NCBI GenBank assembly: GCA_023382875.1
Contig: JAHDXH010000001.1
Coordinates: forward strand, 18,571 to 82,570
Length of the DNA: 64,000 nt
Source of the DNA: Patescibacteria group bacterium
GTDB taxonomy: Bacteria > Patescibacteriota > Microgenomatia > UBA1400 > PJMF01
Direction: 5' to 3'
Shown here piece by piece: positions 3,337-61,879 of this stretch (within the stretch, counting starts at the first letter, position 1; the number at the start of each line of letters is the position of its first letter). The notes under the pieces were generated by a model. It was not told the DNA's origin. It made no database searches and saw nothing but the letters and a program-made list of their open reading frames with translations. Position numbers and translations under genes: made by a program.

Positions 3337-3449
3337 ATAAAATCGCTTCGATCCTAAGGGACCGTAAATTATTTTCAAGTGCCGGTGTGGCAATAATTGG
3401 CGATTTTAAAAAAACAATCTTAAATTAATCTTTCGTTTATAATGCAAGT

Positions 3450-4130
3450 ATGGCAAAAAATACATTTGAAACTCAAGAACATCATGTTAACGTGACGAAA
3501 AGCAAAGAGTACGTGTCTGAAATATTTGTAGAAGCACTCCGTAATTTTGCTGAGAGATTTGGCGAACCAAAAGTTGTTTATTATCCGAGTTCTAGCACAG
3601 ATGTTACTCCGGCTGTTGCTTTTCCTAATGCTCGAATTATTTTTCTTGACATTGATCAAGATGCGATAAATAAGCTTAAAGAAAGTGGAAAGGAAGCGGT
3701 TGAGGCTTCAGCAATAACATATGTTCCAGATGTAAAGGTAGATTTATTGATTCTATTCAACCCAGCAATTGACGCCAAGCTTCCAGCCAGGCACGTAAAA
3801 CTAGGTGGTTTTGTTTTTTGTAATAATTGGCATGCAAGTGCTAAGCAGTTGGCAGAAAATGATGAATTTGAATTAGTCGGAATAGCCATAAATGAAAAAA
3901 ATTCAAAAATAACTTTTGTCACCGGTGAGGAATCACTAGATATTTGGTCTAGTGGTATTGCAGATGTGAATGTTGATAGTGGGTTTATTTTTCAAAGAAT
4001 TAAAGAAAGTCCTCAGTCTAATGAGGAAGCAATTAAAGAATATGAAGATTTAGTTGCAGAACGGGCTAGACAAACTGATGAGCTAATGAGTCGCTACAAA
4101 GAGGTTTCAATCAGTATTGACGATATTTAA
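3450..4130 (+). CDS. hypothetical protein (226 aa, soluble)
   Basis: Clean ORF with a TATAAT-like -10 at 3436-3442. No motif I can name. Confidence 0.4.
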   Translation: MAKNTFETQEHHVNVTKSKEYVSEIFVEALRNFAERFGEPKVVYYPSSSTDVTPAVAFPNARIIFLDIDQDAINKLKESGKEAVEASAITYVPDVKVDLLILFNPAIDAKLPARHVKLGGFVFCNNWHASAKQLAENDEFELVGIAINEKNSKITFVTGEESLDIWSSGIADVNVDSGFIFQRIKESPQSNEEAIKEYEDLVAERARQTDELMSRYKEVSISIDDI

Positions 4131-4162
4131 ACAAGCTTGTGTGATGATGTTATCATGTAGCT

Positions 4163-5332
4163 ATGAGTGATAGTGATAAAGTAAATAATCCACGATTTTT
4201 GATAGTCCAAGTGATTGATAAGCGCGCCGATGAAGTTGCTGTTGCTAATGATTTGTCAGAGACAGAGCAGTTAATTGACACTTTTGGTGGCATAGTAATT
4301 GATAAATTTATTCAGCGACGCGAACACCCTGATCCAAATTTTTACATTGGCGCTGGAAAAGTTGATGAGCTAAAAGAGGTTTGCAAGGCAGAAAAAATAG
4401 ACGTAGTTGTCATTAATGGCCAAGTCAAAAGTAGTCAGCTGTTTCGTATCGAAAAGGAGTTATGGGCAGTCTCAACTAAGATTATGGTTTGGGATCGAAT
4501 TGACTTAATCCTCAATATTTTTGATCAACATGCTTCAACGACAGAATCTAAGCTGCAGATTAAGCTTGCCCGCGCTACGCACATGGGTCCTAGGATTTAT
4601 GGTTTAGGTAAAACTGAGCTCTCTCGTCAAGGTGGTGGTGTTGGTACGCGCGGCAAAGGTGAAACCAACATTGAGTTTGAGCGTCGCCAAATCAAAATTG
4701 ATCAGCAAAAAATCAAGCAAGAACTCAAAAAATTATTAAAGCAAAAACATTCCCGACTCAAAAAAAGAAATGAATTGGGCATTGGTCCCGTGGCATTGGT
4801 TGGTTATACCAGCGCCGGTAAAACGACTTTATTTAATGCTTTGACCGGCAAGGAAAAAGAAATGAATAAGGGTTTGTTTACAACTTTGGATACCGTGGTA
4901 GGAAAGTTAAAAACTCCTGTTTTTGATCAGCCGATTTTGGTTTCTGACACAATTGGTTTTATTAATAATTTACCTCCAGTGTTGATCGATTCATTTAAGT
5001 CTACTTTGCTTGAATCACTAGAAGCTAAGCTACTTTTGCATGTGGTGGATGCTAACGATCCATTTATTTTGGAAAAAATTGCAGTTGTTGAGGATATTCT
5101 AAGTGGTTTGGGAGCGAGACAGCCGATGATTTTAGTTTTAAATAAAGTTGATTTACTCGATGAGGCAAAGCAAGATTCTTTAAAAGAGCAAGTGAACGAA
5201 TTTTTTGAAAAAAATAATGAAGAAGCTGATAAAAGTAATTTGAGATCAATTCAATTTGTCTCGGCAAAATCTGGATTTAATCTTGATGGACTTAAGGAAG
5301 AAATCGTAGGATTTTTTGAGGAGAAGAGATAA
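4163..5332 (+). CDS. hflX: GTPase HflX
   Basis: HflX N-domain followed by G-domain with G1 GYTSAGKTTLFNALTG, G3 DTIGF and G4 NKVD. 389 aa. Confidence 0.85.
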   Translation: MSDSDKVNNPRFLIVQVIDKRADEVAVANDLSETEQLIDTFGGIVIDKFIQRREHPDPNFYIGAGKVDELKEVCKAEKIDVVVINGQVKSSQLFRIEKELWAVSTKIMVWDRIDLILNIFDQHASTTESKLQIKLARATHMGPRIYGLGKTELSRQGGGVGTRGKGETNIEFERRQIKIDQQKIKQELKKLLKQKHSRLKKRNELGIGPVALVGYTSAGKTTLFNALTGKEKEMNKGLFTTLDTVVGKLKTPVFDQPILVSDTIGFINNLPPVLIDSFKSTLLESLEAKLLLHVVDANDPFILEKIAVVEDILSGLGARQPMILVLNKVDLLDEAKQDSLKEQVNEFFEKNNEEADKSNLRSIQFVSAKSGFNLDGLKEEIVGFFEEKR

Positions 5333-6681: not shown

Positions 6682-8061
6682 TCACTCAAACATTTTTTTG
6701 GTGCGCATTAGCTTGTGTTGCTTTTGTGCAAAACGATGAGCTTCATCGCGTACTTGTCTAAGTAGGTTTAATGAGGGATGTTTGTCATCTAGCTTGAGGA
6801 TTTTCCAATCAATTTGCAATCGACCATTTTTTCCTTTGGTTACATTAATTGGCAAAACCAAGCGATCAGGATTTTTTTCTAAGCCAATTACTGGCAAGCC
6901 CCATTGCCAAACAGATAATACCGATCTGACTTGTCCTCTACCTCCGTCAATCATGACCAAACTCGGCTTACCCCATTCTGGGTGTTTTTGGCGTCTGGTC
7001 AAAGCTTCAGCTAACATTGCGAAGTCATTGGGAGTGTTGAGGCTTTTAATATTGAAAAGGCGATATTCATCGGTATCAGATTGTGCGTCAACAAAAGTCA
7101 CCATGGAAACAGCGGGGTTGGTGCCTTGAATATTACTGACGTCATAGCCTTCAATTCTAGTCATGGGCCAAGTTTTTGGCACACCCATATAATCTTGGAG
7201 AATTTTAGCTAGTCTGACTGCGCCTTCTAAATTTTGACTCAGTTGTAATTGGGGTAAAACTAAATCTGGTGAAAGGCGTTTTTTGGTGACATCGTCAATT
7301 AAATCAATTTGCTCTTTGAAAATTTGGGCTTTTTCAAATTCTTCATTTTGCGCTGCTGCGAGCATTTCTTTTTCCAAATTTATAACCACCTGTTTCTTCT
7401 TGCCGCGCAAAAATAAAATTAAATTTTTCAAATTAACTTGATAGTCTTCCTTAGAAATTTCGCCAACACAAGCTCCTGAGCACAAATCAATATGTCGATA
7501 AAAACAGGCTCGACCGCCATCGGGATTTTGACACCACTTGAAAATTTTTCTGACAATTTTCAAAACTTCTTTGGTTTTGAAAGCTGAAGGAAATGGTCCT
7601 AAAACTGTACCCTTGGGATTTTTTTTGACGACTTCTTTTTTGCGCAAAGTTAAAACGCGGGGAAATTCTTCATCGGTGATATGAATATAAAGTGGAGTTT
7701 TGTCATCTTTGAGTAAGATGTTGAATTTGGGCTGATGAGTGCGGATAAGCTCTGCTTCAACGAGCAACGCTTCTAGTTCACTTTCCAAAACTTGAAACTT
7801 TAAGGTCGCGGCACTAGTTACCAATTGTTTGATACGACTATTATGTCTACCAACTTGGGTATAAGAATGAACGCGGTTACGAAGTTTTTTGGCTTTACCG
7901 ACGTACAGGACGTCGCCGTCTTTGGACAAAAACCAGTAAACTCCCGGCAAGTAGGGCAACTGTGACCAATCCGGCTCCCAAGCCAAGCGCGACGACAGGG
8001 TTTTCGAGTCTGCTGAGCTCGTTGGGGACAACGGTGATGGCGACAGTGGTTGTTTGGTCAT
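6682..8061 (-). CDS. uvrC: excinuclease ABC subunit C, short form lacking the C-terminal (HhH)2 domain
   Basis: GIY-YIG motif YLPGVYWFLSKDGDVLYVGKAKKLRNRVHSY. Cys-rich CFYRHIDLCSGACVG. UvrB-interaction region. RNaseH-like domain start RIEGYDVSNIQG. Only 459 aa. The annotated ATG overlaps the upstream gene by about 166 bp. Confidence 0.75.
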   Translation of the reverse strand: MTKQPLSPSPLSPTSSADSKTLSSRLAWEPDWSQLPYLPGVYWFLSKDGDVLYVGKAKKLRNRVHSYTQVGRHNSRIKQLVTSAATLKFQVLESELEALLVEAELIRTHQPKFNILLKDDKTPLYIHITDEEFPRVLTLRKKEVVKKNPKGTVLGPFPSAFKTKEVLKIVRKIFKWCQNPDGGRACFYRHIDLCSGACVGEISKEDYQVNLKNLILFLRGKKKQVVINLEKEMLAAAQNEEFEKAQIFKEQIDLIDDVTKKRLSPDLVLPQLQLSQNLEGAVRLAKILQDYMGVPKTWPMTRIEGYDVSNIQGTNPAVSMVTFVDAQSDTDEYRLFNIKSLNTPNDFAMLAEALTRRQKHPEWGKPSLVMIDGGRGQVRSVLSVWQWGLPVIGLEKNPDRLVLPINVTKGKNGRLQIDWKILKLDDKHPSLNLLRQVRDEAHRFAQKQHKLMRTKKMFE

Positions 8062-18522: not shown

Positions 18523-19346
18523 ATGATCAAAAAGTTCTTCTTCATGTAGTTTGTGACTATGCCCCAGCTGGCATGGAATTTGGTGAGATTACCACTCGCT
18601 TGGATCACGATTTGGCTAATCCAAGTAACGTGAGAATTCATACAACTTCAGTTCCATCTTTGGATACGATGGCCGTAGGTTTTGTGACCGCGCAATATGC
18701 TTTGGCACCATACAATGGCCGTATGGTTATTTATGGCAACGCTGCTCCTCGCCGTAGTTCTGATAAAGCTACCACCAATAATATTGACCACGGTATTAAA
18801 TACGCTAAATTGAAAAATGGCGTGGAAATTATTAACGTTAACTCAGAATTTGCTTTCGGTTTCATGAAAGATCAGATTGTTGAGTTTTATAACATTGATT
18901 GTCCAAATAGTGGATCTCAGTTCCGCTCTCGTGATTTTTTCCCAGAAAGAGTGGCTAAATTAATCAATGGCGACAGAAGTGTCTTAACTGAAAAACTTAA
19001 TATTGATGATATTCCTGAGGTACCCAATAACTTAGTTGCTTGGACTGACGGTTTTGGTAATATTAAAACCTCCATGAGACTTTCTGATTTGCAAAAACTT
19101 GGTTTTGAATCGGGCGAAAGTGTTCAAGTGATTTTGAACGGTGTTTCTATGGTTGGTGTAGTTGGGGTTGGCGGCTTCAGTGTTGATCGCGGTGTTTTGG
19201 CTGTTAACATCGGCTCTTCTGGTTACGATGATCCATTCATTGAACTCTTCCTTCGTGTTCACCACATTAGTGAACAAGCTGCCGCAGTAAGATTTAATTA
19301 TCCAGAGGGTGGTACGCCATTTGAGCTAAAAAAATTAGCTAGATAA
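18519..19346 (+). CDS. DUF62 family protein (SAM hydroxide adenosyltransferase / halogenase-like fold)
   Basis: Recalled similarity to archaeal DUF62 proteins: HTTSVPSLDTMAVGFVTAQ, GRMVIYGNAAPRR, RDFFPERVAKL, TDGFGNIKTSM and LAVNIGSSG. The ATG overlaps the stop of the FTR1-like gene (ATGA). Confidence 0.5.
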   Translation: MNDQKVLLHVVCDYAPAGMEFGEITTRLDHDLANPSNVRIHTTSVPSLDTMAVGFVTAQYALAPYNGRMVIYGNAAPRRSSDKATTNNIDHGIKYAKLKNGVEIINVNSEFAFGFMKDQIVEFYNIDCPNSGSQFRSRDFFPERVAKLINGDRSVLTEKLNIDDIPEVPNNLVAWTDGFGNIKTSMRLSDLQKLGFESGESVQVILNGVSMVGVVGVGGFSVDRGVLAVNIGSSGYDDPFIELFLRVHHISEQAAAVRFNYPEGGTPFELKKLAR

Positions 19347-37478: not shown

Positions 37479-37566
37479 TGGCGGAGGGGGCGGGATTCGA
37501 ACCCGCGGCAGCTTTCACCGCGGCGGTTTAGTAAACCGCTGCACTAGGCCACTATGCGACCCCTCC
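37479..37566 (-). tRNA. class II (long variable arm) tRNA, Ser-type, with anticodon loop TT-ACT-AA (apparent anticodon ACU)
   Basis: Minus-strand read GGAGGGG-TC-GCA-TAGTGGCCTAG-TGC-A-GCGGT-TTACTAA-ACCGC-[16-nt variable arm]-GCGGGTTCGAATCCCGC-CCCCTCC-G-CCA. Perfect acceptor and T stems, CCA encoded. One nucleotide away from a canonical tRNA-Ser(GCU) loop. Confidence 0.7.
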
Positions 37567-51151: not shown

Positions 51152-51314
51152 TTATTCATTTTTAGTGTGTGAAATTAGAGTTGTTTTTTGTGTGAATTTG
51201 GTAATAAAAACAGCTCTTACAAAATTCTAACTTTTAACTTGTTAAGTTTTTATATTGGTTTTATATATTGATATTAGTTTGAGTCAAAAGTATTAAATAA
51301 AATAGAAAGGGATT

Positions 51315-51818
51315 ATGAAAGCAGTTTTACTTGGACTATTTGCAGACAGCAAAAATGCAGGCTTAGCGGTAGCAGAACTAAAAGAAAAAGGTTATACCAA
51401 GGAAATTTCAGTCTTAGCTCGCAACAGCAAAACAGACACCGATGTCTATGAAGTTAAACAAGATGTCACTGAGGGTGCTGCAGTAGGTGCCACGGTTGGT
51501 GTTGCCACTGGTTTACTTGCAGGACTTTTTAGTGGCATTTCTATGATTGCTGTTCCTGGTCTTGGTTTGCTCGTTGGTGGTCCACTGGCGGCACTTTTAG
51601 GGCTTGCTGGTGGTGTAGTTGGATCAGTGGGCGGCGGTTTACTGGGAGCTTTGATTGATTTTGGAGTCAACGAAGCAACAGCGGAAGTTTATGACAAGGC
51701 TATTCAGCGAAATGAAGTTTTGATCGGAGTTACTACCGAAGAAAGTACAGTGGCTTCAGTCACTGACATTATGAATAAGCATTCTGCAAATAATATTTCT
51801 ATAGTACATAAAGGCTAA
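51315..51818 (+). CDS. general-stress-protein-like protein: YflT-type N-domain fused to a glycine-zipper membrane segment
   Basis: N-terminus VLLGLFADSKNAGLAVAELKEKGY resembles the YflT (GSP17M) domain. Gly-zipper GAAVGATVGVATGLLAGLFSGISMIAVPGLGLLVGG. Confidence 0.5.
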   Translation: MKAVLLGLFADSKNAGLAVAELKEKGYTKEISVLARNSKTDTDVYEVKQDVTEGAAVGATVGVATGLLAGLFSGISMIAVPGLGLLVGGPLAALLGLAGGVVGSVGGGLLGALIDFGVNEATAEVYDKAIQRNEVLIGVTTEESTVASVTDIMNKHSANNISIVHKG

Positions 51819-53569: not shown

Positions 53570-53816
53570 CTGAGAGTCAATGAAATTCGGTTGAGTGGAA
53601 GTCGCGCTCCACGAGTCTTCTTTGTAAATATAGAGAAGAACGAAGCTTGGCAAAATCCAAGCCGGAAAACCCGTCATAGTTAAGTTGTTTGCACTAGAAA
53701 TGCAAACAAAATTAAGGCACTTAAGATGTTAATTGAGTGCGAAGAAGGATGGTACCGCGTTGTAAAAACGCTCCTTCAACTATTGATAATAAACAATGGT
53801 TGGAAGAGCGTTTTTT
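53570..53816 (+). promoter_or_regulatory. candidate T-box riboswitch leader (antiterminator and terminator) upstream of an uncharacterised three-gene operon
   Basis: AGGATGGTACCGCG at 53746-53759 (T-box consensus AGGGUGGNACCGCG). Antiterminator GAAGGA-[UGGUACC]-GCG-loop-CGC-UCCUUC. Competing 15-bp terminator AAACGCTCCTTCAAC / GTTGGAAGAGCGTTT plus TTTTTT (53766-53816). AGAGA box near 53632. CCGTCA at 53670-53675. Confidence 0.55.
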
Positions 53817-53860
53817 AGTATCAAGAATTAATTTAAAAATTTGTAAAGATTATTCGTATT

Positions 53861-55051
53861 ATGTTAAGCACCAGAAAAGATGACGAGCATTTAGTAGACA
53901 CAGAACAATTGTGGTCTGAGCGATTTGATTTTAGCGACACAGCTCAATTTCCTTTGATTGCTCTGGAAATATTGGCGGCAATTCCAACTGACGGAACTGA
54001 AGAAGAGAGATTGGTTGGCCAGTTCGCAGATACACTGAGAGCTATGGTTGCTGATCCAGAAAAACAAACATTGTTATTTGCCAAGCTGTTAGAAATAAAT
54101 CCAAATTACCAGCCAAAATTGTATAGTCAAGATGCCAAGGCTAATGTTTTAGCTAATGTTGTGGCCGCTATTTATGCTCCATTAATCCATGCTTTTACAG
54201 GTAGTGTTTTGAAAAATATTCAGGCAGGAATTTTATCTCCAGTGGTGATTGCGCCACCACGTGATGGAATCCCTTTTGCCAATTCAATTAAGGCACAAGC
54301 TGATTTAAAAGGTGTCGCAATCAAAGTCATTGATTTACAAGTTACCAGAAAAGTAGCTGGTATCAGTAATCAACAAGGCCAAAATGGTCATGTGTCCAAC
54401 CCCGATCCATTGTTAGAGGAATATATTGCACAAGAATTAGGTCCATATTTTGAACAAGGTTTTACCGAAATTGAACCAGGAATTTATTCAACTACTAGTA
54501 TGGTGACAGCAGGTTTGGCATCTAAAATGGGTAATGAAAAATATACAGCGCTTAAACTTTATGGACTCGGACCAAACCTTAGCTTTGTTCACGCAATTTT
54601 AAGTGGTGGACAAGAATGGGTCGCAGAAAGAGCCGAGTCTCAAGGCTTAGTCGATCCAGGAAAAATTGCCAACTTGATGACACTTTTGGATTCTACTGAG
54701 GAATTCGGAATGCAACATATGCATGCCTCAGTTTCTAGTTTAAAAAGAAATGAGCAGGGTTTGGTTAAGCCAGATATTAGAGAATCAGAACCAGAAAACT
54801 TAGCAATCGCTATCGCTTCAAATTTAGCTATTACAGATACTGCGGAAATGTATTCAAATAATGAGTTGGCGTTACAAACTGCAACAAGTATTATTGATCA
54901 ATTTGACGAAATTGTGGCTTTGGCAAATCAAGGATTTCCTCTTTGTTTGACTAGCTTGATCCCACCGGGGAAAATTGATAATAAAATTACATTATTTGAA
55001 AAAATAAGAAGTAGCAAGTTACTCAACTTGCCATCAGGTTTAAACTTATAA
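53861..55051 (+). CDS. hypothetical protein (396 aa, soluble), first gene of the T-box-controlled operon
   Basis: Clean ORF starting 45 nt after the leader terminator. No family recognised. Confidence 0.4.
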   Translation: MLSTRKDDEHLVDTEQLWSERFDFSDTAQFPLIALEILAAIPTDGTEEERLVGQFADTLRAMVADPEKQTLLFAKLLEINPNYQPKLYSQDAKANVLANVVAAIYAPLIHAFTGSVLKNIQAGILSPVVIAPPRDGIPFANSIKAQADLKGVAIKVIDLQVTRKVAGISNQQGQNGHVSNPDPLLEEYIAQELGPYFEQGFTEIEPGIYSTTSMVTAGLASKMGNEKYTALKLYGLGPNLSFVHAILSGGQEWVAERAESQGLVDPGKIANLMTLLDSTEEFGMQHMHASVSSLKRNEQGLVKPDIRESEPENLAIAIASNLAITDTAEMYSNNELALQTATSIIDQFDEIVALANQGFPLCLTSLIPPGKIDNKITLFEKIRSSKLLNLPSGLNL

Positions 55052-55067
55052 TTAATTATCTGCCCAT

Positions 55068-55865
55068 ATGAAAAATAATTTTTTATCACTGTTCAAAAGC
55101 CAGAAGCCAATTATTGGTATGGTTCATCTTTTGGCCATGCCAAACTCAAACGGCTATGTTGGATTTGAGGCAACACTCCAGCATGCTCTTAATGAGTTGG
55201 ACAGTTTGGAAAAAGGTGGAATTGACGGCGTTCTGATTGAGAATGACAATGATTCGCCGTATACCTTATTAGCTGATCCAGCTACCGTTGCGGTAATGAC
55301 CGCAATAACTGCCAAAATTGTTGAAAAATCTAGTGTACCTGTTGGTGTAGAAGTATTATTGAATGATCCAAAGGCATCTTTGTCGATTGCAGTTGCTGGA
55401 GGTGCTCAATTTATTAGAACTGATTACTTTGTGGACAGAATGTCTAGGCCAGAATACGGTGGTGAAATATCTATAAACCCACAAGAGATTTTAGATTTTC
55501 GTTCAAAATTAAAGGCAGAAGATATTTTTATTTTAGCTGACGTTCAAGTTAAGCATGCACAATTGCTAGAAGTTGGAAAAACAATTTCTAGTTCAGTCAA
55601 GCAAGCTGAGCAGGCTGGCGCAGATGGGGTTATAGTTTCTGGCAATTTCACTGGAGAACAGCCTGTCGTTGATGATTTAAAAGAGGCTATGGAGGCGGTC
55701 GAGAATATTCCGGTTTTAATTGGCAGTGGTTTTTCATTGCAAAACTCAACTCAGCTTTTGCCTCATACAAATGGCGTAATAGTTGGATCTTCAATTAAAG
55801 AAAATGGAAAAGTTAGTTTGCAAAAAACTAGTGAATTGATGAGTGAAGTGAGAAGCTTTTTATAA
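55068..55865 (+). CDS. BtpA/SgcQ-family TIM-barrel protein
   Basis: N-terminal block KPIIGMVHLLAMPNSNGYVG...GGIDGVLIEND is characteristic of the BtpA family (PF03437-like). 265 aa. Confidence 0.65.
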   Translation: MKNNFLSLFKSQKPIIGMVHLLAMPNSNGYVGFEATLQHALNELDSLEKGGIDGVLIENDNDSPYTLLADPATVAVMTAITAKIVEKSSVPVGVEVLLNDPKASLSIAVAGGAQFIRTDYFVDRMSRPEYGGEISINPQEILDFRSKLKAEDIFILADVQVKHAQLLEVGKTISSSVKQAEQAGADGVIVSGNFTGEQPVVDDLKEAMEAVENIPVLIGSGFSLQNSTQLLPHTNGVIVGSSIKENGKVSLQKTSELMSEVRSFL

Positions 55866-56705
55866 ATGTTGCAGTTTTTGAATAGCCGATCCGATTCGCC
55901 AAAATTTATTTATGTTGGTGATTGTGGGGTTGATTTAATCGATAAAAAAATACGACCCGGTGGTTGTGCCCTAAATGTTAGTTACCACTTACATTCATTA
56001 AAACAAAATATTGATGTTTTAACTTGGATTGGCAATGATGATCGCTCTGGAATAGTGGTGAAAAAATTGAGCGAGATTGGTGCAAGCAAAAACAGAGTTC
56101 ACCAAACCTCAGGAAAAACTCCTGCACAATTTGTTAGTATTCAGCCCAGTGGTGAAAAAAAGTTTGAGAGCTATGAAGCTGGAGTTTTGTCGAGCGCAAA
56201 ACTAACTACAGCTGATAAAGATTTTATAAATCAGCACCATATTTTAATTACTCTTTGTTATTCGCAAATTGCAGATTTATTTGATCAAGTGACTCATGTC
56301 AAATTTGATGGACTTAAGGTTGTGGATTTTATGAGTTTGGCAGATTTTAATTTTGATCTTAACTTTGTCAAAAAATATTTAAATTGGTTTGATATTGTTT
56401 TATTTGGTTTAGATGAAAATCAGACTGAGCTCATTGATCAAATAAAAACCATGGCTCTACAGCATAAAAAATTATGTATTGTGACTTTGGGCAGTGCTGG
56501 TAGTAAGGTGTTTTGGGGTGAGAGTGAATATTTCCAGCCAACAAGGGCAACCAAAGTTGTTGACACAACTGGCTGTGGTGACGCATACCTAGCAGGCTTC
56601 CTGAGCGAATTCGTTCAAAGTCAGAATGTTGAACAAGCAATGAGCTCTGGTTCAAACTTGGCTGCTCAGGCAAGCACCTATTTAGGCGCTATACCTGAGC
56701 AATAA
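55866..56705 (+). CDS. PfkB-family (ribokinase-like) carbohydrate/nucleoside kinase
   Basis: C-terminal signature VVDTTGCGDAYLAGFL (anion hole / catalytic Asp). 279 aa. Start is contiguous with the BtpA stop. Confidence 0.75.
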   Translation: MLQFLNSRSDSPKFIYVGDCGVDLIDKKIRPGGCALNVSYHLHSLKQNIDVLTWIGNDDRSGIVVKKLSEIGASKNRVHQTSGKTPAQFVSIQPSGEKKFESYEAGVLSSAKLTTADKDFINQHHILITLCYSQIADLFDQVTHVKFDGLKVVDFMSLADFNFDLNFVKKYLNWFDIVLFGLDENQTELIDQIKTMALQHKKLCIVTLGSAGSKVFWGESEYFQPTRATKVVDTTGCGDAYLAGFLSEFVQSQNVEQAMSSGSNLAAQASTYLGAIPEQ

Positions 56706-56718
56706 ATTAGTCGTAAAT

Positions 56719-57708
56719 TTAGACGAATACTTCAGCCATCATACAGCGTGCGCTTCCGCCACCTGTTCTTTCGATTTGGTCAATTTCAACAACTACGAGT
56801 TTACCGTATTGTTCCATAATTGCTCTTTGTTCCGGTGTGAAGCCATTATATGCAGTTTTGGACATCACAATTTTTTGACCCTCAGCTGAATTAACTTGCA
56901 AAATATTGCCACACATTTGACTCATTTGCTCAAGAGTAATGGCGATGACTTCTTTGCCGTTTTCGATTAGTTTTGTTTCAACTGCTTGTTTGTCTTTATC
57001 TTCTGGGATAGCTTCAAAACAAACGACTGCGAATTGTTCTCCAACGCTCATGACGACATTGGTGTGATAAATTTCATTACCTTGGGCGTCATTGGCGCGG
57101 AAAAAGACTGGCTCATAGCCGGTGGCTTCTCCGAAGTGGTTTACCCCGTCAACAGTAGTTCTTTGTGATAATGAAGCAAAAGCCAGTGCGTTTTGTCTGT
57201 CCAAAACTAAACTACCAGTTCCTTCTACAAATGAACCCTCTTTTTCTAGTTCGGTAAGGTCAACTACTGGCTTTTGAAGTACTATTCCAGCTTCTGCCAG
57301 AACCTCCATTGCTCTATTCAGCTGTCTTTCTTCGCGACGGTTTTTTGCCTTCATTGGGTAAAGGACAATTTTTGAATCGTGGAAAGAAATCCAGTTGTTT
57401 GGAAAGACTGCATCTGGAGTAGCAGCATAATCTCCAGCTTCATTGGTTCGATTGTCTAGGACAACAACTTTAATACCTTCATCTCTTAATTGGTTAACCA
57501 TCTCTACAAATTCTGTAAGCGCTCTATCTCTAATAATAGCTTCGCTAGCATTGGGTTCTCGGTGTTGGAAAAGGTTGTCAGGAGTGCCGGATTGATCATC
57601 GTAGGCAGTTTGTTCATTGAAGCCAAACATTGATGGGGTGATCATCATAATGATGTCAGTTATTTGTTTTTGTTCACGACCTTCAAGTTCTTGTGGTGTA
57701 CTTGACAT
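56719..57708 (-). CDS. amidinotransferase-superfamily hydrolase (CtlX/DDAH/arginine-deiminase-like)
   Basis: C-terminal catalytic-Cys motif ERTGGGSARCMMAEV. Conserved HTN in the mid region. 329 aa. Confidence 0.6.
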   Translation of the reverse strand: MSSTPQELEGREQKQITDIIMMITPSMFGFNEQTAYDDQSGTPDNLFQHREPNASEAIIRDRALTEFVEMVNQLRDEGIKVVVLDNRTNEAGDYAATPDAVFPNNWISFHDSKIVLYPMKAKNRREERQLNRAMEVLAEAGIVLQKPVVDLTELEKEGSFVEGTGSLVLDRQNALAFASLSQRTTVDGVNHFGEATGYEPVFFRANDAQGNEIYHTNVVMSVGEQFAVVCFEAIPEDKDKQAVETKLIENGKEVIAITLEQMSQMCGNILQVNSAEGQKIVMSKTAYNGFTPEQRAIMEQYGKLVVVEIDQIERTGGGSARCMMAEVFV

Positions 57709-57827
57709 ACTGTCTCCTTTGGGCGGCTAACTAAAAATTAGATAATTGTACAATGGGAATTAGTATCGTGAAAGTCTTACTTATCCGTTACACCATCGTG
57801 ATACAATTGGGTGTAATTTAAGTAACA

Positions 57828-58847
57828 GTGGATAGGACATTTGGTATGATATCACAACAAAATTCCCATGAATTGCTTATTAAGCTTATAGATATTCCAT
57901 CAATTAGTAGCGATGAAAATGCGGTTTGTACTTTTGTTTTTGACTTACTAAAGACAATGTCTTTTGATACTGTTCAAAGAATTCCCGTCGATGAACATGG
58001 CTTTAACATCTTTGCAACGAAAGGTGTACCTAAAGTTCTTTTGCAGGCTCATTTGGATGTGGTGCCTCCACATATTCCCTCTCGCGTTGATGAAACAAAA
58101 ATTTATGGTCGTGGTAGCTGTGACACTAAGGCCTCGGCGGCTTGCATGATTGTGGCAGCCCAACAAGCTTTAGCCGATGGCCTGACAAATTTTGGTGTGG
58201 TTTTCACAGTCAGAGAAGAAACAAGTATGGTTGGAATTAAAAAGCTAGTTTCGGCATTGCCTCAAATTCCTTTTACTATTGTTGGTGAACCTTCAAAGTT
58301 GCAACCCGTGACTAGTCACTTTGGGATGTTAACTTTGAATTTGGAAACTAAGGGAAAAGCTGCTCATACTAGCCAAGCTGGCGAAGGCGTTAACGCTATA
58401 GACGCACTTATCAAAGCTGCCGCTGATCTTCAAAAAATTACCATTCATCCAGACTCGATGCTTTCAGTTGTCAAAATTGAAGGGGGCGTGGCTTCAAACA
58501 TTGTGCCACCGCTTGCCAAAGCTCGCTACAGTTTTAGGATTTCACCAGATGACAAAAATGATTACTTGGAAATGTTCACCAAAGTTTTAAAAAATCATCC
58601 CTTAGCAACAGTCACCAAGGGTTTCGAAGCTGGCGCTGTGAAATCTAAATTACCTAGTGAGTTATCATTTTTAGGTAAAGGTCAGACAGTTAAATATTTC
58701 ACTGAGCTATCATTTTTACAATCTGGTGTTATTTTAGGACCTGGCGACATCATTCACGCTCACACCGACATCGAGCAAGTACAAAAAAAAGAATTAGACG
58801 AAGCGGTTCTTTTGTACGGCAAGATTTTGGTTGCTATGGCTAATTAA
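57828..58847 (+). CDS. M20-family metallohydrolase (ArgE/DapE-like deacylase)
   Basis: LQAHLDVVPP and GRGSCDTKAS motifs (metal-binding His/Asp, GxGxxDxK) of acetylornithine deacetylase / succinyl-DAP desuccinylase. Confidence 0.75.
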   Translation: MDRTFGMISQQNSHELLIKLIDIPSISSDENAVCTFVFDLLKTMSFDTVQRIPVDEHGFNIFATKGVPKVLLQAHLDVVPPHIPSRVDETKIYGRGSCDTKASAACMIVAAQQALADGLTNFGVVFTVREETSMVGIKKLVSALPQIPFTIVGEPSKLQPVTSHFGMLTLNLETKGKAAHTSQAGEGVNAIDALIKAAADLQKITIHPDSMLSVVKIEGGVASNIVPPLAKARYSFRISPDDKNDYLEMFTKVLKNHPLATVTKGFEAGAVKSKLPSELSFLGKGQTVKYFTELSFLQSGVILGPGDIIHAHTDIEQVQKKELDEAVLLYGKILVAMAN

Positions 58848-59422
58848 ACGTCGGTGATATCAATAACCACGACATCGGCATTGCCATCTTGCAAAACAAT
58901 TTCTAAATTGCTTGGCCATTGTTCTGGATGCAGAAGTTTGCCTCCATTTGCTAACATGACTTGTTGCGACTTTAGATTATTGTGTTCGGCTACGCCAATA
59001 ATTTGAGCATTAGGTTTGGCAATTTTGCCTTTTTTGACTGTGTCTAACATAACTCTTGTCCCCCAGCCTTGACCCATATAATTTGAGGCAACTAGCCAGC
59101 TACCTAGCTCAAACAGTGGTGCGCCTTGGGCGGTTGTTCCTGGCCACTGCATGAGTTTGGCAAAAGCTACGATTTCAAAATCCTTGTCTTCATTCACAAA
59201 AATAGTGCCCATGCCTTTGGCGACAAAATCCATAATTTGATGAGGTGAAAATTGCAGCATCGAGTCAGGATACTGGCCTAATAAATCGGTTACTTGGCAA
59301 CACAGCTCGTATAAAAGTTTTGCTTCAAAATCTGGTAGCTCTTCAACTTCTTTATTTTGAAGATGAGATAGTGGGTTGAATTCAACAATACTGGAAGGCA
59401 TATTACTCCTTTTTAGTGGCAT
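58844..59422 (-). CDS. hypothetical protein, possibly GNAT-like acyltransferase fold
   Basis: GQGWGTRVM resembles GNAT motif A. Weak. 192 aa. Confidence 0.35.
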   Translation of the reverse strand: MPLKRSNMPSSIVEFNPLSHLQNKEVEELPDFEAKLLYELCCQVTDLLGQYPDSMLQFSPHQIMDFVAKGMGTIFVNEDKDFEIVAFAKLMQWPGTTAQGAPLFELGSWLVASNYMGQGWGTRVMLDTVKKGKIAKPNAQIIGVAEHNNLKSQQVMLANGGKLLHPEQWPSNLEIVLQDGNADVVVIDITDV

Positions 59423-60596
59423 GAACTACGGCGGCAATTTTTCCTTGAAGTCCATATAGCTTGATAAATCCATCAGCCTCAACCGCAGACCAACTACTGC
59501 TTTGGGCGTAGCTAGCGATGTCAGGTTTGATCAGGGTGAAAGGAGAAGAAATTGCGACTGGCAAAACTTGGTTGGGTTGAACTTTGAGTTTCACTTCCCC
59601 ACTCACAACACTCTGTTCAGCATCAAAGAATGACTTCAGGTTAGCAACAACTGGTTCAAAAAACTTGCCAGTATAAAATAGGTCGGTTAAATGTTGTCCA
59701 AGCTCTGCGCCAATAGTTTGTTGTGGTTTGGTCAGAACTAATTGTTCCAAAGCTTTGTGAGCTGTTATTAATGCTAAAACACCTGGAGCTTCAAAGACGA
59801 TATGACCTTTGATACCAATCACACAGTCGCCAGTGTAATAACCTCGGCCATATCCATACTGACCTATCAGCTTGTTAAGTTTTTGCAGGATTGTTTCGCC
59901 CGACATCTTAACACCGTCAAGTGCGCAGGGAACGCCTTTGTCAAATTTAATAGTAATGTAGATGGGTTTGGTGGCAGTTGGTTTGGTCCAAATGAACATT
60001 GATTCGTCTGGTTCTTTGAGTTCATCGATTTCGCTGCCTGAGTAAGTAATGCCTAAGACATTTTGGTTAACAGAATATTTCTTGTGAAGGTTTGGGACTT
60101 CAAAACCTTTTTCTTTCAAAAATTCCATTTCTTTTTGTCTGTTACCGCCCATTTCTTTGATTGGTGAGTGAATGGTGATGTTGGGATCGAGAGTCATTAA
60201 AGCAACGTCAAACCTGACCTGATCGTTTCCCATTGCACTTGATCCATGAGCGACGTGGTTGACTTTTAGTTTATGAGCAACTTTTAAAACTTCCTCAGCA
60301 ATGATGTATCTATCGGTACACATGTTGGGATATGAACCTTGATATAGACCATTGGTTTTAATGATATATTCGACAACTGAATTAAACATTGAATTCATGC
60401 CATCAACTTGAATGTGTTTGATCGCACCAAATTTTTTTGATTTTTCAGCTATAGCTTTAAGTTCTTCTTTTGTGTAACCACCGGTTTCCACAGTCACGGT
60501 GATGACTTCGAAGCCTTGTTCTTGTAAATATGGAATTGAGAATGATGTATCAAGGCCGCCTGAAAATGCCAAGATAATTTGTTTTCCTTTTTTCAT
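59403..60596 (-). CDS. argG: argininosuccinate synthase
   Basis: PP-loop AFSGGLDTS at the N-terminus and the full-length ArgG architecture (397 aa). Confidence 0.9.
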   Translation of the reverse strand: MKKGKQIILAFSGGLDTSFSIPYLQEQGFEVITVTVETGGYTKEELKAIAEKSKKFGAIKHIQVDGMNSMFNSVVEYIIKTNGLYQGSYPNMCTDRYIIAEEVLKVAHKLKVNHVAHGSSAMGNDQVRFDVALMTLDPNITIHSPIKEMGGNRQKEMEFLKEKGFEVPNLHKKYSVNQNVLGITYSGSEIDELKEPDESMFIWTKPTATKPIYITIKFDKGVPCALDGVKMSGETILQKLNKLIGQYGYGRGYYTGDCVIGIKGHIVFEAPGVLALITAHKALEQLVLTKPQQTIGAELGQHLTDLFYTGKFFEPVVANLKSFFDAEQSVVSGEVKLKVQPNQVLPVAISSPFTLIKPDIASYAQSSSWSAVEADGFIKLYGLQGKIAAVVHATKKE

Positions 60597-60905
60597 ATGT
60601 CCTTTCTGTGTGACATTAATTGTTTTTTAAATACAAAAAAACAACTTGATTAAAAATTACAGAAAGGGACGTTGAAAACGTGGTACCACCCTTTTTCCTC
60701 ACTTAAGTTGCCCTAAGTGAGCTCAGTCTATTTGCTCCGTTGCTCTAAACGAGTGACACAAATATGTGGCTATAACGGGCCCTGCCGTCTTAGATTTTGC
60801 TAAGCTCCTCAGCTTGAGAGTAGATCTCAAGCACTAAGAATCGCGACTTCTTAATTAGGATTTGTGGTTATTAAGATACAACATCAATCATTGCTGATGA
60901 CGTTA
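60597..60905 (-). promoter_or_regulatory. candidate T-box leader RNA of argG (minus strand) with antiterminator-like element and possible SD-sequestering helix
   Basis: Minus-strand AAAAAGGGTGGTACCACG (plus 60679-60696), which is the T-box core GGGUGGUACC. CCCGTTATA (F-box-like CCGUUA). Antiterminator-like AAAGGG-[UGGUACC]-ACGUU-uuc-AACGU-CCCUUU. GUCCCUUUCUG can pair with CAGAAAGGAC, which covers the argG SD GAAAGGA. Promoter TTGCAA-17-TATTAT at 60912-60940. Confidence 0.5.
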
Positions 60906-60911
60906 AGCGAT

Positions 60912-60940
60912 ATAATACACAATAGTTTTTTTATTTGCAA
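60912..60940 (-). promoter_or_regulatory. sigma70-like promoter (minus strand) TTGCAA-17-TATTAT for the argG leader
   Basis: Minus-strand -35 TTGCAA (plus 60935-60940), 17-nt spacer, -10 TATTAT (plus 60912-60917). Confidence 0.45.
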
Positions 60941-60958
60941 GATCGGAGAATGCAAGTT

Positions 60959-61879
60959 CTACTTTCTGACGAGTGGCAAAGTTAAACAATGCGGACCACC
61001 GCCTTGCGTAAGGATATCAGATAGTTCGACTTCAATAACTTCGATTCCACCCTCTCTCATTCTTTGATTAGTTTGTTTGTTTTCTGCTGCTGAAATAACT
61101 TTTCTGTCAGCAATTGCCAAAACATTAGTGCAACAAGTAGTATATTCATCTTTACTGGCTTCGATCAATTGGTACCCTTTGGTTTGCAAAAGTCTAATGA
61201 CATCATCAGGAATCCATTCCGGAATACAAACAATAGATTTGTTTCCCAAAATACCCATGACAGTATCGATATGAAATGCTTTATCTTCAAAAACTGGATA
61301 AACAGGAACAAACTGTGTGCCTGGGAAATGATCGCGCAACACTTCTAAACTTATCTCATTTGTTCGTGGTCCGATGCCCACTAAAGCCAGTTCTGAATTG
61401 AGCAAAGCAAAGTCTCCACCTTCAATTGTATAAGGTCTCGAATCTTCAATAATATTTTTGGCAGCTATATTCTGATAAATACCATCAACTTCACCTTTTC
61501 GATAATCATATTTCATGACTGATGGCAAAACTTTTCCTCCAATAATTACCCCCACATCTCTGGTAAACAAAGGGGTATGACCCACTCTACCAGGCTCAAC
61601 ATCAGAGTAAACTAACTCTATGCCTTGGCTTTCTAGTGTATCCATTAGTCCGCGAAATTGCCTGGTGGCAATCGGTTTTGACTCCAGAGCGACTGGGTTT
61701 CCTTGAGCATGGAAAGCTTGAACCGGGTTAACAATCAAATCATTAAACGAAGTAATCTCTTGAGGTGGTCTAACAACCATGACTTTGACTAAGGGTGAAA
61801 ATTCATTGTTTAGATGAGGGGTTATTTTTGGGCGATCATCTAGCTCATAATCAGGGTTAAGTTCAGGATTTCTTCGCAT
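60959..61879 (-). CDS. amidinotransferase-superfamily hydrolase (DDAH / arginine-deiminase-type, 306 aa)
   Basis: C-terminal catalytic motif LTQGGGPHCLTLPL. Mid-region conserved His/Asp. Confidence 0.55.
   Translation of the reverse strand: MRRNPELNPDYELDDRPKITPHLNNEFSPLVKVMVVRPPQEITSFNDLIVNPVQAFHAQGNPVALESKPIATRQFRGLMDTLESQGIELVYSDVEPGRVGHTPLFTRDVGVIIGGKVLPSVMKYDYRKGEVDGIYQNIAAKNIIEDSRPYTIEGGDFALLNSELALVGIGPRTNEISLEVLRDHFPGTQFVPVYPVFEDKAFHIDTVMGILGNKSIVCIPEWIPDDVIRLLQTKGYQLIEASKDEYTTCCTNVLAIADRKVISAAENKQTNQRMREGGIEVIEVELSDILTQGGGPHCLTLPLVRK

Follow-up and report, generated by a model that had tools for sequence, protein, structure and literature searches.

Firmicutes and Actinobacteria are the main phyla from which T-box riboswitches are known, and Chloroflexi and Deinococcus-Thermus have been mentioned too (TBDB preprint). 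T-boxes with a short Stem I were looked for in TBDB only in Actinobacteria and among truncated Rfam hits. Here we analysed a leader of ~310 nt in front of argG, the gene for argininosuccinate synthase, on contig JAHDXH010000001.1 of a Patescibacteria group bacterium (assembly GCA_023382875.1). The stretch of 64,000 nt that was analysed (positions 18,571 to 82,570 of the contig) is called the window, and all coordinates of argG and its leader refer to the minus strand of the window. An original prediction had described this leader as a T-box with a translational expression platform. It was found that the argG leader is a divergent arginine T-box riboswitch, of a short-Stem-I type found in Patescibacteria, which belong to the Candidate Phyla Radiation (CPR), and that it likely acts on translation via sequestration of the Shine-Dalgarno (SD) sequence. 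Arginine T-boxes are reported to occur in Clostridium difficile. In a literature search, no paper linking T-boxes with Patescibacteria, CPR, Microgenomates or Saccharibacteria was found, although the family may still be known.

The Class I T-boxes covered by the Rfam model RF00230 (such as Bacillus subtilis tyrS) share with the argG leader Stem III, the T-box sequence AGGGUGGUACCACG with its 7-nt bulge, the antiterminator helices, the F-box and Stem IIA. They also have in common that a gene for amino-acid biosynthesis is controlled, and the sensing logic would be the same, with uncharged tRNA recognised via a codon-like specifier and UGGN/NCCA pairing. In contrast to Class I, the argG leader lacks the long Stem I, the internal Specifier Loop and the distal double-T-loop platform (IDTM), and its Stem I stretch was found to be free of both the AGAGA bulge and the GGUGNNA motif of the distal loop. 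Its Stem II has shrunk to a hairpin of 5 bp with no AGUA/GAA S-turn. Between Stem IIA/B and Stem III the leader carries one more stem, and its terminator is missing.

The Class III T-boxes with ultrashort Stem I, represented by ileS of Nocardia farcinica and Mycobacterium tuberculosis, likewise have a short Stem I without IDTM (PMC10482949, PMC7583486, PMC11297988). The F-box and the Stem IIA part of Stem IIA/B are shared with the argG leader, for which a specifier in the apical loop, followed by a purine, is likewise proposed, and an SD-sequestering helix that shares the antisequestrator strand, together with a small energy gap, is what was predicted for it. The elbow platform (IDTM) was deemed essential for transcriptional T-boxes, and a short Stem I was associated with translational control (PMC7583486). 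The argG leader belongs to arginine (CGC) and argG rather than isoleucine and ileS, and to Patescibacteria rather than Actinobacteria. The specifier loop of its family is mostly 6-8 nt, compared with 5-6 nt in Class III, and the S-turn and purine string on which tRNA binding depends in Class III are missing from its Stem II. Terminators are present in 11 of the 12 family leaders, whereas Class III is mostly translational (PMC10482949). Moreover, the sequestrator of the argG leader would be a long-range one, closing a loop of ~50 nt.

Identification of the argG leader as a T-box

By cmscan in E-value mode, RF00230 matched the argG leader at 60662-60865(-) with 47.7 bits (E-value of 1.8e-9 for a 501-nt region and 2.3e-7 for the whole window), which agreed with the T-box-type leader originally predicted upstream of argG. 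The F-box, Stem III and T-box/antiterminator were aligned to the model with high posterior probability, and the 3' domain of the argG leader is a T-box. The predicted fold of the 316-nt leader had a z-score of -3.98 against shuffled sequences. The covariance-model check that had been suggested with the prediction thus gave a match, yet one below the gathering score of RF00230 (93 bits), and in a default Rfam scan with the curated threshold no T-box was reported anywhere within the window. The low score was due to the absence of most of Stem I, namely its distal half; in the cmscan alignment, 43 nt of the leader replace 84 model positions of Stem I.

When the whole window was searched with RF00230, only two T-box-like elements were found, the argG leader and a leader at 53.6 kb (W2), which was matched likewise with 38.1 bits. 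The similarity of the two leaders noted in the prediction is real, and they are paralogues. Every motif quoted in the prediction was located on the minus strand at the positions it had given.

A near-canonical arginine T-box was found before argG-argH on a 1.3-Mb Gracilibacteria contig (L031, 3195-3459(+), 77.8 bits). It has the same regulon (argG-argH), CGC, UGGU, a CPR host and a stem in the linker after the F-box in common with the argG leader, but differs from it by a long Stem I with AGAGA and GGUGNNA, an internal Specifier Loop, AGUA in Stem II and a terminator. Because 77.8 bits is still lower than 93 bits, canonical-looking CPR T-boxes also escape the Rfam threshold.

Architecture and covariation of the leader family

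Relatives of the leader were collected from the loci of ArgG relatives and by a gene-independent DNA pattern (Stem II loop, F-box and T-box core) on JGI metagenomes. Besides the argG leader, 11 further distinct leaders of the same build were obtained. The short-Stem-I leaders scored 25.8-54.8 bits against RF00230, and because these scores are far under 93 bits they are missed by standard annotation. As the argG leader and its 10 short-Stem-I siblings reach only 26-55 bits, the extent of RNA regulation in CPR genomes is underestimated.

A structural alignment of 11 full-length leaders was curated by hand, and its segments, when joined again, gave back the exact sequences. It covers 8 helices with 42 pairs, in which 96.4% of the cells were paired, a value that leans towards structure because the alignment was fitted by hand, compared with 68.3% in column shuffles, and 0 of 500 shuffles reached the observed value. 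Compensatory changes were observed at 31 of the 42 pairs (20.7 in shuffles), and the covariation score was 0.84 (0.24 in shuffles). When the partner strand was slid by 1-3 columns, just 31-45% of the cells paired. RNAalifold on the raw MAFFT alignment, as an independent control, gave 22 pairs, 14 of them with compensatory changes. These results demonstrated a common architecture that covaries. From 5' to 3', it comprises P1, a specifier hairpin of 5-8 bp, a second hairpin that 8 of the 11 leaders have, a Stem II of 5 bp with a CAAAAU loop, Stem IIA with the F-box CCGUNA in its part, a linker stem, Stem III and the antiterminator with UGGUACC.

In the argG leader, the base helix of the Stem I domain is P1, in which UCC (60858-60860(-)) pairs with GGA (60806-60808(-)) according to the curated alignment. 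P1 was 100% paired in the family, with compensatory changes at 2/5 pairs (UA/AU/GC and CG/UA/GC). The short Stem I, that is, the specifier hairpin AUUAAGAA-[GUCGCGA]-UUCUUAGU at 60833-60855(-), has 8 bp and a 7-nt loop GUCGCGA (60841-60847(-)), and is devoid of a distal tRNA-elbow platform; the previously noted hairpin UAAGAA-GUCGCGA-UUCUUA lies at 60835-60853(-). Compensatory changes were found at 6/6 stem pairs of Stem I, which was 100% paired compared with 55% in shuffles. A variable second hairpin GCUUGAGA-UCUAC-UCUCAAGC (60812-60832(-)) follows the specifier hairpin and precedes the P1 3' strand, and the two hairpins and P1 form a three-way junction. Second hairpins of unrelated sequence were present in 8/11 leaders and missing in L012, L019 and L021. 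In most leaders the specifier hairpin is flanked by UGA...GA (or CAA...AA) resembling a kink-turn (K-turn); in a search for K-turns, GA or AA dinucleotides were seen to flank it in ~9/11 leaders, with GA on both sides in six. The argG leader has UAAUU 5' of the specifier hairpin, and UGA occurs only after the second hairpin.

The minimal Stem II, CUUAG-[CAAAAU]-CUAAG at 60789-60804(-), corresponds to the reported GCUUAG-CAAAAU-CUAAG (60789-60805(-)) and has no AGUA/GAA S-turn signature. Its 5 pairs were 100% paired, 4 with compensatory changes, and its conserved loop GCAAAAUC was invariant in 10/11 leaders. The Stem IIA hairpin ACGG-CAGGGC-CCGU with the F-box CCGUUA (60773-60788(-)) was placed with high posterior probability on the F-box region of RF00230, and the F-box-like CCCGUUAUA was located at 60771-60779(-). 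Because CGG...CCGU is invariant across the relatives and never varies, Stem IIA is uninformative for covariation. Pairing of 3-6 bp between the Stem IIA/B loop and the linker was possible in every leader, in a register that was not constant; in the argG leader, the candidate pseudoknot would join GGC of the Stem IIA loop to GCC at 60766-60768(-).

The linker stem AUUUG-[UGUC..hairpin..AACGGAG]-CAAAU (60730-60763(-)), which separates Stem IIA/B from Stem III, has no counterpart in the Rfam T-box model and was counted as an insertion in the RF00230 alignment. The 5 pairs of its outer helix were 96% paired and all had compensatory changes (5/5), and its internal loop UGUC / AAC-R-GAG is conserved among the leaders, at the same place in all siblings. 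Stem III, CUCACUUAGG-GCAA-CUUAAGUGAG at 60698-60721(-), was found by the RF00230 alignment, the fold and covariation, its 6 outer pairs being 98% paired, all with compensatory changes.

The antiterminator/antisequestrator AAAGGG-[UGGUACC]-ACGUU-UUC-AACGU-CCCUUU at 60663-60694(-) was aligned with a posterior of ~1. It contains the T-box sequence AGGGUGGUACCACG at 60679-60692(-), also with a posterior of ~1, within the longer AAAAAGGGUGGUACCACG (60679-60696(-)), so the leader carries the T-box consensus AGGGUGGNACCGCG with the 7-nt bulge in the antiterminator helix. The inner helix was 100% paired and the outer helix 89% paired, with compensatory changes in both. The UGGUACC core was invariant in the 11 full-length aligned leaders, and the T-box core was present in 12/12 distinct leaders. 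The antiterminator fold had been drawn correctly in the prediction, and it covaries among the relatives.

Specifier codon and tRNA ligand

The original prediction had placed the specifier, as the codon AGG or CGG, in ACGGCAGGGCCCG. Both triplets do occur there and both are arginine codons, but the segment turned out to be Stem IIA plus F-box, aligned to that part of RF00230 and making the invariant CGG...CCGU hairpin in the relatives. The loop of Stem IIA varies freely (AAAAC, AUGGAAA, UUCGAGU and others) with no shared arginine codon, and the specifier of T-boxes lies in Stem I (PMC10482949). We therefore give hardly any credence to a specifier in ACGGCAGGGCCCG.

It is proposed instead that the specifier is CGC at 60843-60845(-), followed by a purine, in the apical loop of the short Stem I. 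The GUCGCGA hairpin had been listed merely as shared with the 53.6 kb leader; it is indeed shared, yet it would hold the specifier as well. Among the loops of all 11 full-length leaders, CGC was the only common triplet, and a purine came next. The family loop mostly contains GUCGCG, while that of L012 is an apparent 4-nt CGCA. GUCGCG was outside the search pattern, yet it was present in the loop of 6/6 distinct metagenome matches. In the Gracilibacteria leader, CGC directly follows the conserved GAA of the Specifier Loop. It was reported that NNC specifiers are preferred, especially for six-codon families, including arginine T-boxes (TBDB preprint).

The ligand would be tRNA-Arg. All identifiable functions downstream of the family leaders are arginine-related, and sibling contigs carry genes for tRNA-Arg(GCG), whose anticodon is an exact Watson-Crick match to CGC. 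As for the discriminator base, A73 was found in 5/5 tRNA-Arg genes on sibling contigs, which matches UGGU as had been expected. Within the window no tRNA-Arg gene was found.

Expression platform of the argG leader

A consensus scan of 60400-61100 gave no terminator-like site, and in a systematic hairpin/U5 search the best hairpin with a U-run in the argG leader had just -0.6 kcal/mol, consistent with the predicted lack of a strong downstream terminator. A terminator is absent from the argG leader. A non-canonical terminator at the U7 run (~60630) was tried as a candidate and rejected, its best stem having 4 bp and -0.6 kcal/mol. In contrast, 11/11 relatives carried terminators of -16.5 to -37.5 kcal/mol with U5 or more, built on the antiterminator 3' strand.

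In the minimum-energy fold of the free RNA (-22.5 kcal/mol), UUUUCA-AC-GUCC-C-UUUCUGU was predicted to pair with ACAGAAA-GGAC-AUA-UGAAAA. The SD was paired with a probability of ~1 and the start codon was partly covered in this unconstrained fold. The proposed sequestrator 5' strand UUUUCAACGUCCCUUUCUGU (60659-60678(-)) includes GUCCCUUUCUG (60660-60670(-)) and has nucleotides in common with the 3' half of the antiterminator, which makes the sequestrator and the antiterminator mutually exclusive; an OFF structure that shares the antiterminator 3' half is thus present in the predicted fold. The proposed 3' strand ACAGAAAGGACAUAUGAAAA (60590-60609(-)) holds the SD GAAAGGA (60600-60606(-)) and the argG start codon (60594-60596(-)), and CAGAAAGGAC was located at 60599-60608(-). 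The predicted fold and duplex bear out the proposal that the CCCUUUCUG strand is able to pair with the argG SD. An A/U-only hairpin AAGUUGUUUUUU-UGUAUUU-AAAAAACAAUU (60618-60647(-)) lies within the sequestrator enclosure.

Prediction of the alternative folds had also been recommended. With the antiterminator enforced, the argG leader had -17.8 kcal/mol, compared with -22.5 kcal/mol for the free, SD-paired form. The sequestrator fold was calculated to be 4.6-4.7 kcal/mol more stable than the ON fold, so the SD-sequestering fold is the thermodynamically preferred one in the computed ensemble. The OFF/ON gaps of the siblings were 7.4-19.6 kcal/mol, and that of the argG leader was the smallest of the family. 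A smaller gap was reported for a translational T-box compared with a transcriptional one, the same direction as here (PMC11297988). The switching strand paired with its own ribosome-binding site (RBS) with -16.7 kcal/mol, which ranked 2 among the 60 RBSs of the window (mean -5.3, z of -3.3), while the same strand of nine siblings paired with their own RBSs with -1.3 to -7.1 kcal/mol.

In an alignment with the partial leader L007, which was noisy, the GC-rich terminator 3' strand AAGGGGCG appeared to be gone from the argG leader and the U7 run to be kept, which suggests that the U7 run of the A/U-only hairpin might be a remnant of an ancestral terminator U-tract.

Proposed mechanism and alternative explanations

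Taken together, we assign a probability of about 0.6 to the reading that the argG leader is an arginine T-box controlling translation by RBS sequestration. In this mechanism, the anticodon of uncharged tRNA-Arg (GCG or ICG) would pair with CGC in the apical loop of the short Stem I, and the 3' ACCA end of the tRNA would pair with UGGU in the T-box bulge and stabilise AAAGGG/CCCUUU and ACGUU/AACGU. In the 11 related leaders, the helix stabilised in this way is expected to compete with a strong intrinsic terminator. In the argG leader, the terminator would have been lost, and UUUUCAACGUCCCUUUCUGU would instead pair with ACAGAAAGGACAUAUGAAAA, that is, with the argG SD and start codon. When arginine is plentiful and tRNA-Arg is charged, the RBS would be sequestered and no ArgG made; when uncharged tRNA-Arg accumulates, the antisequestrator would form and translation would start. 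The translational platform is favoured because the sole terminator-less leader is also the sole leader with strong SD pairing and the one with the smallest gap.

Several observations weigh against this reading. The RF00230 score of 47.7 bits is about half of the gathering threshold of 93 bits. The anticodon and A73 of the ligand had to be taken from other organisms, since the window contains no tRNA-Arg gene. A clean UGA...GA K-turn at the base of Stem I, present in most siblings, is lacking, and the loop-to-linker pairing of own pairs (mean 3.9 bp) was inseparable from that of cross pairs (3.4 bp). The curated alignment was fitted towards structure, a bias that is mitigated by the controls with shuffled columns or slid partners and by the separate RNAalifold run.

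An unrelated RBS, UAGAAAGGGAUUAUGAAA (51293-51322(+), of the gene at 51315-51818), paired better with the switching strand (-21.0 kcal/mol), and 2/90 cross pairs of leaders and RBSs reached -16.5 kcal/mol or stronger, so equally strong pairing occurs by chance in ~2-3% of cases (1/59 other genes; 2/90 cross pairs). SD complementarity alone amounts only to about p 0.02-0.03, since a T-box 3' strand is anti-SD-like by nature. The sequestrator strands are ~50 nt apart, unlike those of compact sequestrators. No second terminator-less relative was found among the 12 leaders, and with this single case the sequestrator helix (GUCCCUUUCUGU/ACAGAAAGGAC) gains no support from covariation. The strain variants L025 and L026 have two substitutions only, neither in the platform, and are identical in the sequestrator. 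Of the translational platform in the original prediction, the missing terminator, the own-RBS pairing of -16.7 kcal/mol and the smallest gap thus speak for it, and the chance level of 2-3% and the lack of covariation qualify it.

One alternative is that the leader is a T-box left without an expression platform, argG being constitutive after terminator loss and the SD pairing fortuitous. The comparison with L007, the closest relative, in which the GC-rich terminator 3' strand appeared lost and the U-run kept, would fit such decay, as would the chance frequency of pairing of like strength (~2-3%). Among distinct CPR argG loci, 5/10 have the leader and 5/10 do not, which shows that the regulation is dispensable in this lineage. 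But the conserved sensor elements are all intact (the specifier loop, GCAAAAUC, the F-box, the linker-stem loop and the 14-nt T-box sequence), and the two substitutions of the strain variants look neutral. The strongest own-RBS pairing and the smallest gap coincide with the missing terminator, and decay predicts neither. Furthermore, the predicted fold would repress translation even without tRNA control, so argG would not simply be constitutively on. We consider this alternative unlikely, though not negligible. An occluded RBS often leaves an mRNA exposed to Rho or RNases, so RBS occlusion could be a route to a leader that acts mainly at the transcript level without an intrinsic terminator, through Rho-dependent termination or cleavage by an RNase. 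Control is transcriptional in all 11 relatives, and processing of a T-box by RNase III is documented in S. aureus (PMC7913692). Nevertheless, the argG leader contains no terminator signal, its sequence points to neither a Rho site nor a processing site, and a transcript-level effect would follow from SD sequestration and not compete with it as an explanation; an action of this kind was judged improbable. That an unrelated structured leader merely resembles a T-box by chance might be argued from the score under the gathering threshold and from the mismatch of Stem I to the model. This is scarcely compatible with the E-value of 2.3e-7 across the window, with UGGUACC being invariant in 11 full-length leaders and its core present in 12/12 while the flanking positions covary, or with the exclusive association with arginine genes and the near-canonical relative at 77.8 bits, and we regard it as extremely unlikely.

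Beyond the preferred reading of an SD-sequestering arginine T-box, it is tentatively proposed, at less than even odds, that a T-box class not annotated before exists in Patescibacteria (CPR of the Microgenomates type) and that the argG leader is a recent natural conversion from transcriptional to translational control. As parts of the same joint proposal, this class would have a Class III-like apical specifier without elbow platform or S-turn, a new linker stem, normally intrinsic terminators, and an arginine regulon including tRNA-Arg genes, and in the conversion the 3' strand of the terminator would have been lost and the switching strand would have taken the SD as its partner instead. If true, such a class would be at odds with the current view that, to capture tRNA quickly, transcriptional T-boxes depend on the elbow platform. 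The capture of tRNA by a decoding module without S-turn is a testable mechanistic question, and the terminator version (53.6 kb) and the SD-pairing version (argG) of one sensor in one genome make a natural pair for studying a platform change. The argG copy alone is of less interest than the family as a whole, which combines a short Stem I and a minimal Stem II with terminators, occurs in CPR hosts and would control tRNA-Arg genes.

Relatives of the leader and their genes

The leaders of L002, L012 and L027 precede argG, a small ORF (open reading frame), argH and an M20 enzyme, and those of L018, L023 and L024 precede argH-argG. L007 has a partial leader at a contig end followed by argG, the product of which is 69% identical to ArgG of the window and is its closest distinct relative. 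The leader of L020 (2766-3175(+)) is followed by tRNA-Arg(UCU), tRNA-Leu(UAG), tRNA-Arg(GCG) and then argH-argG, and that of L019 (5001-5333(-)) by tRNA-Arg(UCU), tRNA-Arg(UCG) and then an M20 enzyme, with a probable ArgS further on. In both, the tRNA genes start ~10-15 nt past the terminator of the T-box leader. If these leaders control the tRNA-Arg genes, including that of their presumptive own ligand, a positive feedback loop would result. The leader of L021 is followed by a 431-aa protein of unknown function (3337-4632(-)) and then an M20 enzyme; the 431-aa protein had no Pfam match, and its resemblance to the ATP-grasp peptide ligase PGM1 was non-significant (E-value of 0.21).

ArgG of L023 has relatives in Pacebacteria, Gracilibacteria and WWE3, and contigs of this type were therefore taken as CPR too. 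The WWE3 argH-argG-argS locus (L029) has no T-box. A search with ArgG against one genome per GTDB species gave no close relative, only a gammaproteobacterial locus with 32% identity (L001).

Genomic context in the window

A promoter-like site at the 5' end of the argG leader, TTGCAA (60935-60940(-)) and TATTAT (60912-60917(-)) with a 17-nt spacer, was found by a consensus scan and matches 9/12 consensus positions. The promoter sequence named in the prediction is thus present at 60912-60940(-), but sites of this type near the leader were as frequent as in shuffled sequence, and the site is therefore not significant on its own. TTGACA/TATAAT-like boxes were seen at the equivalent relative position of sibling leaders. 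At the very start of the leader, a 5' hairpin AACGUCAUCAGCAAUGAUUGAUGUU (60880-60904(-)) is particular to the argG leader and its strain variants and is missing in the other 11 leaders; it may stabilise the 5' end.

argG (59403-60596(-)) encodes a protein of 397 aa that matched TIGR00032 with 298.8 bits (cut-off 268). It is adjoined by an ORF of 192 aa with a weak GNAT match (58844-59422), which overlaps the argG stop, and its further neighbours encode an ArgE-like M20 enzyme (57828-58847), a CtlX citrulline hydrolase (56719-57708) and a DDAH/ADI-like protein (60959-61879). No argH was found within the window. These genes make up a citrulline/arginine cluster at 56719-61879, and the same set stands beside argG in L007, L015 and L025. 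The composition of the cluster hints at salvage of citrulline, not at de novo synthesis of arginine, and the family points to arginine/citrulline salvage (argG, CtlX, DDAH/ADI-like, ArgE-like) as a regulated node in very small genomes. The closest named relatives of ArgG are from Shapiro-, Woese- and Roizmanbacteria and from 'Patescibacteria group', and those of UvrC (6682-8061) from Woesebacteria, Pacebacteria and Paceibacterota, which places the origin of the window in a Microgenomates-like member of the CPR/Patescibacteria.

The paralogous arginine T-box leader at 53581-53820(+) contains the same type of short Stem I, which reads GUGGA-AGUCGCGC-UCCAC, and its terminator, of -21.6 kcal/mol, is a classical one with U6. 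The operon behind it encodes a 396-aa protein (53861-55051, without an evident SD), a protein of the BtpA family (55068-55865) and a PfkB kinase (55866-56705) that resembles fructoselysine 6-kinase. Neither this 396-aa protein nor the 431-aa protein of L021 had a Pfam or PDB match, and the two are mutually unrelated. This operon occupies the place of argH in the relative L007. In addition, a tRNA-Ser with the anticodon ACU (A34) was found at 37479-37566(-), which is unusual for AGY serine codons.

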